Part shown: positions 9,102-10,682 of the stretch, piece by piece
Layout: every line of letters starts with the position of its first letter
Position numbering within the stretch: the first letter of the stretch is position 1
Source: Shigella phage SF1-1
Direction: 5' to 3' (one strand)
Sequence record: PQ571307
DNA length: 64,000 nucleotides
Position numbers and translations under genes: made by a program
The notes under the pieces: model-generated
Seen by the model: only the letters and a program-made list of their open reading frames with translations
Told to the model about the DNA's origin: nothing
Database searches by the model: none

Positions 9102-10682
9102 GATAATCTCCTCTCATCGTTAGCCATCTTTCATGGCAATCATCAATCACCAACATCATACGATCAATCTCAGGGAATTACAATCGAATTATCATAGGGG
9201 ATTCCTATCAATTATCCCATATATACCGATTATTTTTGACACCCCACTCTTGTATAAAAAGTAACCCAAAATATCTACGGGGAGAGATTATTTCGACACA
9301 CCCTGTTTCATGGCAATCATGGCAAGAATATCTAATAGAATCAATATCATATGGCAAAAATCATGGCGCATACGTAAGAAGTGCTTAACGCGAATTTTCG
9401 GGCCGTCAGGTCCACGCAGCGACAATTCCCAAATATCATGAGAATGAGAATAATTATCATTCGTATTCAATGACTTATGCAAGGCTTATGCCAACGTAGC
9501 GACAAAGTGGGCCACTTGATTATAAATCACACAAACACTTATTTATCAATGGTTTGGCAACTTCATCATATGACGGAACATTGTCAACTGATCCCGCTCA
9601 TAACAAGCAGACTATTATTTATATGAGAATGATTATTATTTAAACGTTTATTAACATAAAAACTAAAATAAATCAAGAATTTTCTGATTTTATTTACGTT
9701 TAAGAGAAGATGCTCAACATATCGCTACGCGATAGTATTCGCCCCCGTAATATTTGCTCTTTTCTTAGTGCTCAACATTCCCGCCCGTGGCGGTAACATT
9801 TCGCCCCCAAAATTATTGACTTTTATTCTATTATGTGCACACTATGCAACCTGTCGCTACCGACCGCCCTCCGGTCGGGGTAGCATCGCGCTATTCGCTC
9901 ATGTTGCTACGTGCAATTATTCATCTTGCTAATGATTTCATATTGTAACCATTACAATGATTATTGTTATTGCGCTAATGTTATGATCTTGGTAATTACA
10001 TATAATGCTAATAATAAGCCAGCGCAATAAGTGTAAGCGTAATTACGCTTGCAATTATTGCAAGCTACGCAATAACAAGAAATAACCGTCACCGATGGTT
10101 ATGATTGTTGGGGTGTAGTTGGCTTATTATTAGCTCGCTATGTGTCCGGCATAGCGTGCTAATGATGACTCTGTGAATGATTCGTTTTGTAATGATTTCA
10201 TTCAGGCACTATTTTGCTAATAGTTATTATTTTAATGGTTTCGTTTGTTATTGTTCGTTAGTTGGTTGTTTTGTCGTGTTATCGTTATCTTGCTTAGTAT
10301 TCATCATGGTTTGATTGTTTGTTGTTATCAATCATCTTGCTATTATTCCTTTGATTATGATTAGTTTGCTTATTGTTTTATGTTGTTTGTTGGTTAGTTG
10401 TTGCGAACTATTATCAACATGATAGTTATGCGCTTATATTGCATAGATAATCATGGGTAGATGATAATGGTTATCATTGCACTAGAAAGGAGGTAAAAAG
10501 GTGTTTTTGATGGTTTGTTGTTGGTTGTTGATCGATTTTAACCGCTATAAATGGCTCTCTAACAGCCTGTTGCCCTGGGGTGTATGGTTATTCGTTTAAT
10601 GGCTGATTAGCTCGATACCGCGATTTATTCAATTTTATTCTGTGTCGGTTTTTCATAGGCGAAAGCTATCAACATTGTTCGG
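9102..10682. other. 1.6 kb non-coding AT-rich regulatory region with palindromes, GTT-rich tracts and repeated motifs (candidate origin / operator cluster)
   Basis: No credible ORF; perfect palindromes AAGCGTAATTACGCTT and GCTTGCAATTATTGCAAGC near 10040-10075; GCGCAATAA x3; GAGAAT-gATTATCATT motif at 9438-9463 and 9623-9641; GC hairpin 9868-9890. Confidence 0.6.

Follow-up and report, generated by a model that had tools for sequence, protein, structure and literature searches.

To our knowledge, the recognition, cutting and duplication of short direct terminal repeats (DTRs) are understood in detail for the T7 group only. In that group the terminal repeat is flanked by short repeats and the early genes are read inward from one end; in lambda, cosN is the cut site and the adjacent cosB carries the repeats bound by terminase. 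For the large and therapeutically popular rV5/phi92/phAPEC8 group, only repeat lengths have hitherto been reported. The published terminal repeats measure 328 bp in Schickermooser (Korf et al. 2019, PMC6563267), 342 bp in BME3 by PhageTerm (PMC12210895) and 317 bp in FKP3 (PMC11663894), and the annotated DTR-L and DTR-R of phi92, each of 343 bp, are mutually identical. The genome map of rV5 shows a 'non-coding' box without a function or a terminus assigned to it (Kropinski et al. 2013, PMC3606486). That the family has a DTR is established, but its junction grammar appears to be undescribed, and in the literature searched we found no account of a cut-site core common to both edges, of junction-like units in tandem or of the flanking conserved elements reported here.

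We analysed a window of 64 kb (64,000 nucleotides) from the Phapecoctavirus (phAPEC8-like) genome of Shigella phage SF1-1 (PQ571307). The original prediction had pointed to an unusually long non-coding stretch, and this was borne out: positions 9102-10726 (1625 nt) form the top ORF-free run in the 64 kb, defined as sequence outside every ORF of 65 aa or more in the six frames, with a runner-up of 568 nt. No ORF in the gap survives across lineages, in agreement with the non-coding reading. The call for conservation in relatives was also answered, as the gap is 95-98% conserved while the flanking genes align at 30-57%; in these alignments the gap is much more conserved than the mosaic genes on both sides. 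It adjoins a leftward operon of small genes, the first of which occupies 8727-9101. The layout, running from the DTR through approximately 1 kb of non-coding DNA and a terminator to a gp248 homologue, is common to phi92, and the right-hand module of the gap is also present in Av-05 (Vequintavirinae). Tandem-repeat periodicity was limited to weak arrays of 7-24 nt, Rfam 15 gave zero matches at E ≤1 in 8000-12000, and ARAGORN gave zero tRNA or tmRNA genes in the 64-kb window. The earlier interpretation of a non-coding, conserved region abutting a leftward operon stands; what it missed is the physical end of the chromosome. Our preferred reading, to which we give slightly better than even chances, is that the gap represents the concatemer junction (genome terminus) of a phAPEC8-like Stephanstirmvirinae myovirus, with cis-acting DNA that would handle the ends. 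The features of the region are as follows.

9102-9385, minus strand: leader, from the DTR to the first leftward gene; 97-99% conserved within the genus
9381-9393, plus strand: junction motif at the left DTR edge, GTGCT|TAACGCGA, putatively cut before 9386; in most Stephanstirmvirinae loci examined
9386-9714, unstranded: DTR of 329 bp, here as a single collapsed copy; orthologous to the DTRs of relatives
9449-9461, unstranded: dyad box 1, core AATAATTATCATT, a Fur-box-like 6-1-6 repeat inside the DTR; position kept in phi92 and Wec179
9628-9640, unstranded: second dyad box in the DTR; position kept in phi92 and Wec179
9699-9720, plus strand: right DTR junction motif TTTAAGAGAAGATGCT|CAACAT (edge form TTTAAGAGAAGnTGCT|CAACAT), with the putative cut after 9714
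9715-9900, plus strand: hypervariable patch of tandem junction-like units, 1-3 copies among relatives
10007-10156, plus strand: covarying multi-stem element of ~150 nt, supported by covariation, fold energy and strand bias
10171-10440, plus strand: GT-rich, C-poor tract, nearly invariant in the Phapecoctavirus, Wec, PsgM04F and IMG035 lineages
10439-10478, plus strand: candidate rightward promoter, TTGCAT (10439-10444), 18-nt spacer, GATAAT (10463-10468); architecture kept in phi92 and Av-05 (Vequintavirinae)
10479-10682, plus strand: conserved module (GATCGATTTTAACCGC..TAAAT; GATTAGCTCGATACCGCGATTTATTCA..TTCTGTGT) from the candidate promoter to the terminator, common to Vequintavirinae
10683-10711, minus strand: intrinsic terminator for the leftward operon that lies upstream, with its stem at 10711-10693 and the tail TTCTTTTT; also annotated in phAPEC8 and in Schickermooser

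Positions 9386-9714 are 96.9% identical to a 329-bp sequence of which the Schickermooser record has an exact copy at each end, and they align end to end with positions 1-343 of the phi92 DTR. The WPEC1/2 and Mt1B1_P17 records begin at window position 9387, and several records begin or end at 9386/9387. The two junctions, GTGCT|TAACGCGA and GCT|CAACAT (9712-9720), are spaced 329 bp apart, have the core GCT|YAAC in common and recur in most of the lineages examined. Repeat lengths implied by the junction motifs (329, 332 and 342-344 bp) match the published 328, 342 and 343 bp; the exact-match scan for the left junction failed to pick up PsgM04F and Wec188. As judged from sequence, these comparisons show 9386-9714 to be a 329-bp DTR collapsed to one copy in the assembly and edged by conserved GCT|YAAC junctions.

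The right part of the DTR holds a trough of 18% GC at 9600-9699. The FKP3 repeat likewise maps onto the 9386-9714 interval, with PhageTerm edges some 15 nt inside the motif edges, an offset that we counted against the terminus model.

To the right of the DTR follow tandem units that repeat the right-junction (cut-site) motif, each ordered as CAACAT, a short self-complementary GC hairpin and TTTCGCCCCC, and a second AGTGCT|CAACAT lies at 9767-9778. A GC hairpin had been noted in the region: the terminator at 10693-10711 is real and a hairpin is present at 9860-9888, but the fold of the latter does not rise above shuffled sequences (z = -1.5).

Further to the right, the palindromes that first drew attention to the region were found as described. 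The palindrome AAGCGTAATTACGCTT (10035-10050) exceeds in length every other perfect even palindrome of the 64 kb, and GCTTGCAATTATTGCAAGC (10047-10065; 9+1+9) overlaps it by 4 nt. Of the motif GCGCAATAA, said to occur three times, there are in fact two copies in the region, one inverted (9967 on the minus strand and 10022 on the plus strand), plus one CGCAATAA at 10068. Repeats of TGCTAATGAT are confined to two copies (9927 and 10157), and of the 17 copies of its shorter form TGCTAAT in the window 4 fall within the region, in one orientation only; a motif of this type is iterated in Klebsiella phages too. A pattern scan with the 19-mer palindrome returned unrelated sequences in 13 of 17 viral-contig matches, attributable to chance, and in 7 of 16 metagenome matches. 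Both palindromes belong to the multi-stem element, which has the following parts.

10007-10021 paired with 10120-10134: closing stem P1
10024-10061: Arm A, a long hairpin that holds the 16-mer palindrome
10047-10065: alternative hairpin H2, the 19-mer palindrome
10066-10070 paired with 10113-10117: P2
10082-10102: H3
10136-10156: H4

In an alignment of 23 sequences, 99.2% of 998 cells of the element are paired and 12 pairs have changed on both sides; the covariation score is 0.224 vs 0.089, a score reached by 0 of 500 shuffles, and slid controls are 25-54% paired. BLAST and pattern scans found a single copy per genome. G·T pairs outnumber A·C pairs by 41:1 on the plus strand (approximately 10 independent events vs 1), which identifies the plus strand as the folding strand. 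The RNAalifold consensus fold has an energy of -61.5 kcal/mol on the plus strand and -40.6 on the minus strand. For the plus strand of the window copy, z is -11.4 as RNA (200 shuffles; the MFE structure equals the centroid) and -8.95 as ssDNA. On these measures the ~150-nt element qualifies as a conserved, strand-specific structured nucleic acid, predicted to act as RNA or as ssDNA. The folded element appears to be undescribed, and its role would lie in end processing or packaging, in an origin or in an RNA.

The element begins 293 nt from the DTR edge, and this distance varies between 182 and 390 nt among lineages; that it does not abut the DTR and lies at a variable distance was counted against the terminus model. 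Also counted against that model was the fit of the plus-strand fold to a transcript as well as to transient ssDNA. The motif TTGAC(T/A)...TGTG..CACA was considered as a conserved promoter and rejected, being found in some lineages and absent from phAPEC8 and the Wec/Psg lineage.

Beyond the element, the GTT-rich character that had been noted was confirmed by a GC skew of +0.2 to +0.54 and an AT skew down to -0.56 across 10100-10600. The G>C skew of the plus strand extends locally over 10050-10750, as on the sense strands of the SF1-1 genome. The GT tract has no coding signature; phi92 has another, equally C-poor sequence in its place. Structured RNA was rejected for the tract, with z = -0.7 for one strand and -0.9 for the other, and readings as Chi-like or primase sites were unsupported by strand and orientation logic and by motif counts. 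Its near-100% conservation, which a purely compositional role does not explain, was counted against the terminus model. The adjoining TTGCAT-N18-GATAAT is a putative promoter whose -10 element falls within dyad box 3 (10466-10478). Structural covariation in 10425-10722 was set aside as weak (covariation term -0.95, many broken pairs), and conservation there is at the level of sequence. The terminator that closes the gap scored as bidirectional in relatives.

At the other end, the best sigma-70-like match in the scanned interval, TTGCCA-18-AATAAT, lies on the minus strand of the leader (9316-9287), which also carries two copies of TTTCATGGCAATCAT (9129 and 9306). The originally predicted regulatory hub for leftward early transcription is plausible for 9102-9385. 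The dyad boxes have 6 core sites vs 0.5 expected (~12-fold) at conserved positions; they overlap with candidate -10 elements, and another regulatory gap (17501-18068) has such boxes as well. Among the predicted Fur-box sites, the best match is 16 of 19 positions, at 9440 and 17526. The 6-1-6 model of the Fur box is cited in PMC2189734, according to which consensus matches may fail to bind and predictions based on them are unreliable. The literature searched contained no account of Fur boxes in the genomes of virulent phages.

Under the terminus model, these features would be distributed over the two virion ends. One end would consist of the DTR followed by approximately 280 bp of leader and promoter DNA (9385 down to 9102) driving the leftward small-gene operon, and this DTR-leader end would probably be the first to enter the cell. 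The second end would run from the terminator through 10682 down to 9715 and then into the DTR, such that the ~970 bp inside it may serve as cis-acting DNA to make and handle chromosome ends. The tandem units would be recognised by terminase or by a nuclease associated with it. Cuts would be made at the two GCT|YAAC sites, one on each strand, and strand-displacement synthesis would duplicate the intervening 329 bp in a T7-like manner. The Y-shaped 150-nt hairpin element would work while the plus strand is single-stranded, being recognised or serving to prime in end processing, packaging or the initiation of replication. On outward-facing promoters, the Fur-box-like dyad boxes would act as operators, and the GT tract and the terminator may shield the terminus against leftward read-through transcription. 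Gene orientation and the analogy with T7 and lambda are what suggest terminase binding, the cutting at GCT|YAAC, the direction of packaging and the first-entering end.

An unlikely alternative, though the strongest of those considered, is that the ~150-nt element, possibly with the 10470-10711 module, is a non-coding RNA gene transcribed rightward from the plus strand and acting in trans or in cis, e.g. with a regulatory or anti-defence role or, at a more speculative level, as a packaging cofactor similar to the phi29 pRNA and encoded beside the chromosome end. It is retained for the covarying element because the plus strand is the folding strand, and the strong covariation, the plus-strand fold energy, the G·T:A·C ratio and the RNA z-score are all as such a gene would have them. 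The local G>C skew resembles that of sense strands, and 10470-10711 is bracketed by the conserved TTGCAT-N18-GATAAT and the bidirectional terminator. However, the element has no Rfam match at E ≤1, a terminator is absent after H4, and no consistent sigma-70-like promoter lies upstream in four lineages, with no conserved rightward one in phi92, Wec179 or phi1_175008. Promoter-like matches number 19 in the window interval vs 11.4 in shuffles, a modest excess, and in the gaps of relatives they equal the shuffled expectation or less. The 10425-10722 module has little structural covariation, the GT tract lacks a fold signal, and the literature search found no transcriptomes of these phages.

We consider it rather improbable that the DNA right of the DTR serves as a replication origin, in which TGCTAAT-type motifs and the hairpin on the lagging or displaced plus strand would recruit the phage primase-helicase or stabilise an R-loop beside an AT-rich unwinding zone. 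Initiation signals made of structured ssDNA occur in G4, phiX174 and M13 and at plasmid ssi sites, while T4 and ColE1 have R-loop origins. As ssDNA the element has strong structure, TGCTAAT is repeated here in a single orientation (4 of 17) and iterated in the Klebsiella phages, and the 18% GC trough and a local GC-skew switch near 9950-10000 are also in keeping with an origin. The cumulative GC skew, suggested as a check for an origin, did not bear this out in the 64-kb window: its minimum lies at ~24 kb, where the direction of transcription switches, and the gap has only the local switch. Skew changes in rV5 track transcription orientation only (PMC3606486), and genome-scale GC skew was rejected as origin evidence, as it follows transcription direction only. 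We identified neither an initiator protein nor boxes of the DnaA type, and P1-type iterated motifs could equally be terminase sites.

More doubtful is a reading of the gap as mainly a transcriptional insulator and control region without an end-processing role, where the terminator and a C>G unstructured read-through zone end leftward transcription and operators for host Fur or a phage repressor control early promoters. The intrinsic terminator (10711-10683) and the best minus-strand promoter match (9316-9287) fit this reading, as do the dyad boxes in their ~12-fold excess, their overlap with candidate -10 elements and their recurrence at 17501-18068. Transcription of 10170-10690 on the minus strand would yield an RNA rich in A and C, poor in G and unstructured (z = -0.9), and phi92 retains that composition with a different sequence. 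It leaves unexplained, however, the covarying hairpin element, the tandem copies of the junction motif and the near-invariance of the GT tract, and consensus-based Fur predictions are unreliable (PMC2189734).

Scarcely credible is a gap hiding one or more small protein genes, as in the automated annotation of ETEC-TG (7 short 'hypothetical protein' CDS), WPEC1, PsgM04F, FKP3 and a few other records: the strong SD and GTG at 10489-10501 are absent in Wec179/188 and every Justusliebigvirus, with an in-frame stop in nepoznato; zero ORFs are intact across lineages; the sole one open in the Wec/Psg lineage (10245-10364) has 84-87% aa vs ~96% nt identity, so that its substitutions are essentially all non-synonymous; and most curated records have zero annotations across the interval. 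The SD+GTG mini-ORF 10501-10599 (32 aa) and the other ORFs of at least 30 aa were rejected as genes, not being conserved across lineages.

The present analysis adds to the repeat lengths a candidate cut-site motif, GCT|YAAC, at both repeat edges, repeated units beside the cut and a covarying, strand-specific folded element, all of which are open to direct mutation tests. Most deposited genomes examined opened at arbitrary points and several pipelines placed spurious 'hypothetical proteins' in the gap; the junction motifs permit correct genome orientation and annotation. In engineering or rebooting these phages, the cis-elements need to be kept. Should host Fur bind these Fur-box-like operators, early phage transcription or host iron regulation would be tied to infection, a link for which no report was found in the literature searched. 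As a wider and more tentative proposal, which we hold to be well short of even, rV5/phi92/phAPEC8-like myoviruses would carry inside one end a strand-specific Y-shaped three-way junction of ~150 nt, with an alternative hairpin and a single-stranded role in chromosome-end biology, together with terminus-proximal promoters possibly wired to Fur and iron. The junction could take two possible forms, a cis-acting ssDNA recognition or priming structure (for repeat duplication, packaging or replication) or a packaging-associated RNA. Either would be a type of signal of which we know no description in terminase-packaged dsDNA phages.

Among known systems, the phi29 pRNA is structured and encoded near a chromosome end, and the ssi/Frpo sites and the G4 and M13 origins are priming signals. 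The SF1-1 element resembles these in size (~130-170 nt), in having several hairpins and in strand specificity, but has no sequence or Rfam similarity to them; furthermore, we know of no pRNA requirement in terminase-type phages and of no obligatory ssDNA stage in a dsDNA phage. The lambda cos site is similar in having a cut site with repeats on one side only, at what would be the first-packaged end. It differs in that lambda makes 12-nt cohesive ends rather than a 329-bp duplicated repeat, and in SF1-1 the repeated units themselves carry copies of the cut-site motif. The concatemer junction of the T7 group has a short DTR with short repeats beside it and a nearby hairpin-forming inverted repeat, with early genes reading inward from one end, a resemblance of layout only, and a hairpin intermediate takes part in its repeat duplication. 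SF1-1, in contrast, is a ~150 kb myovirus of another virus group without sequence similarity, and its element is a multi-branch fold of 150 nt at ~290 nt from the repeat; a shared mechanism is a proposal by analogy. The dyad boxes have the identical core AATGAT-N-ATCATT of the E. coli Fur box (19-bp consensus, 6-1-6) and are putative Fur sites, at which a repressor encoded by the phage could also act. The rV5 box and the 1.9-kb ORF-free gap of Av-05 are large ORF-free blocks in the related myovirus group; Av-05 has the right-hand module (dyad boxes, TTGCAT, TAGCTCGATACCGCG and the terminator) and an analogous nested-stem element, although this hairpin element is unrelated in sequence. For phi92 and Schickermooser the sources gave repeat length or coordinates only, but their DTRs are orthologous in sequence, bear the same junction motifs and are placed alike, with the gp248 homologue and its terminator on one side and the first leftward genes on the other.

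When ORFs of 65 aa or more are mapped in all six frames, the longest stretch of the 64 kb left uncovered is 9102-10726 (1625 nt; the runner-up has 568 nt), which bears out the gene-free region of the original prediction (9102-10682). The stretch is also non-coding by comparison, as none of its ORFs of 30 aa or more stays intact from lineage to lineage, and the single ORF still open in the Wec/Psg lineage is less similar at the amino-acid than at the nucleotide level. A mini-ORF at 10501-10599 with a GTG start and a strong SD was rejected as a gene: start and SD are gone in phiWec179/188 and all Justusliebigvirus, and nepoznato has an in-frame stop. 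A sequence search with the 1581-nt region matched 73 phage records (80-99% identity). Apart from a few, these are Escherichia phages in the genus Phapecoctavirus (phAPEC8-like, subfamily Stephanstirmvirinae), and hardly any has an annotation there. Records named as Campylobacter phages (B15, C3, A110a), Pseudomonas phage PsgM04F and Acinetobacter phage ABPW7 are phAPEC8-/phi92-like coliphage genomes (80-97% identity), and their host labels look doubtful.

Conservation in relatives was confirmed, the gap being 95-98% identical within the genus, while its flanking genes are exchanged in most relatives (~30-57% aligned identity). A conserved gap between mosaic genes suggests that its edges (terminator, leader) act as recombination boundaries. 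The flanking genes at 8727-9101 and 10727-11110 are replaced by unrelated sequence in most of the relatives' loci compared (L001-L017). Segment 10171-10682 is 85-93% identical in the divergent Wec/PsgM04F lineage, though the direct terminal repeat (DTR) there is only ~65% identical. The same layout of DTR, ~1 kb of non-coding sequence, terminator and gp248 homologue is found in phi92, and even in Av-05 (Vequintavirinae) the right-hand ~300 nt can still be recognised, bordering an ORF-free gap of 1.9 kb. The rV5 paper drew a 'non-coding' box and assigned no function (PMC3606486).

Many independent GenBank records start or stop inside the gap in a sensitive search; the break falls at query 285/286 (window 9386/9387) in Schickermooser, Mt1B1_P17 and WPEC1/2 alike. 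The two ends of the Schickermooser record are exact copies of one 329-bp sequence, which corresponds to window 9386-9714 at 96.9% identity; the terminal repeat of this phage was given as 328 bp (Korf et al. 2019, PMC6563267). Left and right DTRs of 343 bp are annotated in the phi92 reference record, and these two identical copies align to the same interval. PhageTerm-based terminal repeats are 342 bp for BME3 (PMC12210895) and 317 bp for FKP3 (PMC11663894), the latter falling in the same interval with edges ~15 nt further in than in phi92 and Schickermooser. According to PMC12695924, genomes of Stephanstirmvirinae 'terminate with direct terminal repeats'. These records identify the gap as the chromosome end. 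In the deposit of Klebsiella phage FKP3 (PP895363.1, 1-817), the exact 317-bp copy lies at 1-317 and again at 501-817, with sequence from the left of the DTR in between; the DTR seems to have been placed in front of a contig in which it was already present. Records in GenBank and contigs from metagenomes of ~150 kb (L041, L042 and L044 among these loci) often begin or end in the gap at differing query positions (285, 361, 380, 614, 672 and 1548), which fits assemblies breaking at or near a terminal repeat.

The DTR edges carry the following motifs, the bar marking the inferred cut:

Left edge: GTGCT|TAACGCGA(A)TTTTC
Right edge: TTTAAGARAAGnnGCT|CAACA

Both recur in the Phapecoctavirus, phiWec179, Justusliebigvirus and Klebsiella-phage lineages; in an exact-match scan the left motif turned up at most loci, PsgM04F and Wec188 excepted. 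Edge-to-edge spacings of 329, 332 and 342-344 bp reproduce the published repeat lengths, and the core GCT|YAAC with an upstream AAGA..G context is common to both edges. Directly to the right of the DTR, 9715-9930 is the one part of the gap that aligns poorly (33-64% aligned identity); it consists of one to three tandem units, each opening with a further AGTGCT|CAACAT, then a short GC hairpin and lastly TTTCGCCCCC. The hairpin sequence varies by unit and phage and its self-complementarity is kept.

Both predicted palindromes are present, at 10035-10050 and 10047-10065; they overlap by 4 nt, and the former, a 16-mer, is the longest perfect even palindrome of the window. GCGCAATAA, said to occur three times, has only two copies in the region (one inverted), plus one CGCAATAA. 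The TGCTAATGAT repeats amount to two copies. The palindromes are parts of a covarying folded element, 10007-10156. Its alignment, first of 20 and later of 23 sequences, covered every available lineage and drew five new members from a metagenome scan. The parts are:

10007-10021 with 10120-10134: P1, closing stem of 15 bp
10024-10061: arm A, long hairpin around the 16-mer palindrome
10047-10065: H2, the 19-mer palindrome, a mutually exclusive alternative to arm A
10082-10102: H3, with P2
10136-10156: H4, hairpin after the others

In the 23-sequence alignment, 99.2% of 998 cells are paired and 12 pairs have changed on both sides (77 cells), with a covariation score of 0.224 against 0.089 for shuffles (0 of 500); slid controls are only 25-54% paired. 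RNAalifold independently recovered P1, arm A (two covarying pairs), P2, H3 and H4. The fold is specific to the + strand, whose consensus reaches -61.5 kcal/mol with 53 pairs against -40.6 kcal/mol and 38 pairs, with C·A breaks, for the minus strand. Non-Watson-Crick cells on the + strand comprise 41 G·T and 1 A·C, roughly 10 independent events against 1, where a strand-symmetric constraint would give ~1:1. The window copy adopts a Y-shaped three-way junction, with z = -11.4 (+ strand, -66.5 kcal/mol) and -6.7 (minus strand) for RNA and z = -8.95 and -6.68, respectively, for ssDNA. A + strand non-coding RNA is thus a rival reading; searches of the gap gave no Rfam match at E ≤1 and no tRNA, and the literature searched offered neither transcriptome data nor a functional study for these phages. 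As a caveat, Klebsiella phages have several direct copies of GCTAATAATACC, any of which can pair with the single inverted copy, so that the P1 arms double as an iterated motif. Between genera, H3 is inverted in its loop and inner part, the loop reading ACC in Phapecoctavirus and GGT in Justusliebigvirus; the BLAST match at 690-712 of phi92 is reversed in place, which looks like a flip between inverted arms. Av-05 has an analogous element of unrelated sequence, with perfect 18-bp and 16-bp nested stems around smaller palindromes.

The GT-rich tract also held up (GC skew to +0.54, AT skew to -0.56). At 10171-10440 it is near-invariant in the Phapecoctavirus, Wec, Psg and IMG035 lineages and gives no fold signal on either strand; phi92 has a different sequence in its place, with the C-poor + strand kept. 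A dyad box whose core, AATGAT-N-ATCATT, is the same as the E. coli Fur box core of 6-1-6 type (PMC2189734) is present at six sites in the window, where 0.5 would be expected:

9449 and 9628: in the DTR
10466: right end of the gap
17529 and 17587: second-largest gap
25619: single box

The DTR and right-end positions are kept in phi92 and Wec179. A candidate promoter, TTGCAT-N18-GATAAT, in conserved arrangement and with its -10 overlapped by box 10466, points rightward to the terminator hairpin, which scored as bidirectional in Wec179; the module between them shows little structural covariation. Read on the minus strand, this hairpin is the intrinsic terminator at which the upstream operon ends (stem 10711-10693, tail TTCTTTTT). 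Within the interval scanned, the best match to a sigma-70 promoter is at 9316-9287 on the minus strand, upstream of the first leftward gene, and every plausible gene from 1 to ~24,000 is on that strand. The promoter arrangement with a box over the -10 is present in two copies that point away from the middle of the gap, one on the minus strand at 9439-9461 (in the DTR, leftward, TTGCAT at ~9483-9478; less clear in phi92) and one on the + strand at 10439-10468 (right end, rightward). The 'PHIRE promoters' annotated in phAPEC8 (9801-9857, 11216-11235, 12066-12085, 12447-12466) are not promoters themselves: they represent a conserved 5' hairpin (GGGCGGCAatggTGCCGCC) that closely follows consensus sigma-70 promoters (TTGACA-17-TAATAT). 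In the second-largest ORF-free gap (17501-18068, 568 nt), the two near-perfect Fur-box-like dyads stand upstream of the leftward gene 17201-17500; two A-rich units of ~135 nt (TTTACAAAA(G/A)TGAAAGT..AAAATTTAAAGTTTA) are present, and 17515-17543 resembles the DTR. The short motif GTAGCGACA occurs at 9496-9505 (+) and inverted at 9852-9861, with a variant, GCAGCGACAA, at 9416-9425; GTAGCGAC is repeated in the Av-05 gap as well.

Promoters, operator-like boxes and terminator could be read as a purely transcriptional insulator and operator region, a reading that would leave the covarying fold unexplained. A replication origin, as first proposed for this stretch, is a further rival; the cumulative GC-skew minimum of the window lies at ~24 kb, at the switch in transcription direction and not at the gap. 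These three rivals are not mutually exclusive. The DTR itself is already known for the family; no description of the cut-site core, junction-like tandem units, covarying strand-specific element, invariant GT tract or Fur-box-like operators was found in the literature searched, which is not proof of newness.

We favour, by analogy, a cis-acting role in recognising the ends, making staggered cuts at GCT|YAAC and duplicating the repeat. Since the small leftward genes point away from the DTR, this end would enter the cell first, as in T7, T5 and SPO1. The other end (10682 down to 9715, beside the DTR) would then be packaged first, which would place the junction-like units and the folded element where lambda and T7 have their packaging and end-processing signals; it is this likeness of position that favours the cis-acting role. 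The terminus would be cut in staggered fashion and the repeat duplicated, the fold acting while the + strand is transiently single-stranded. In lambda, cosB lies beside cosN. In T7, a hairpin structure in terminal-repeat-containing DNA was observed during infection (PMC4281155).
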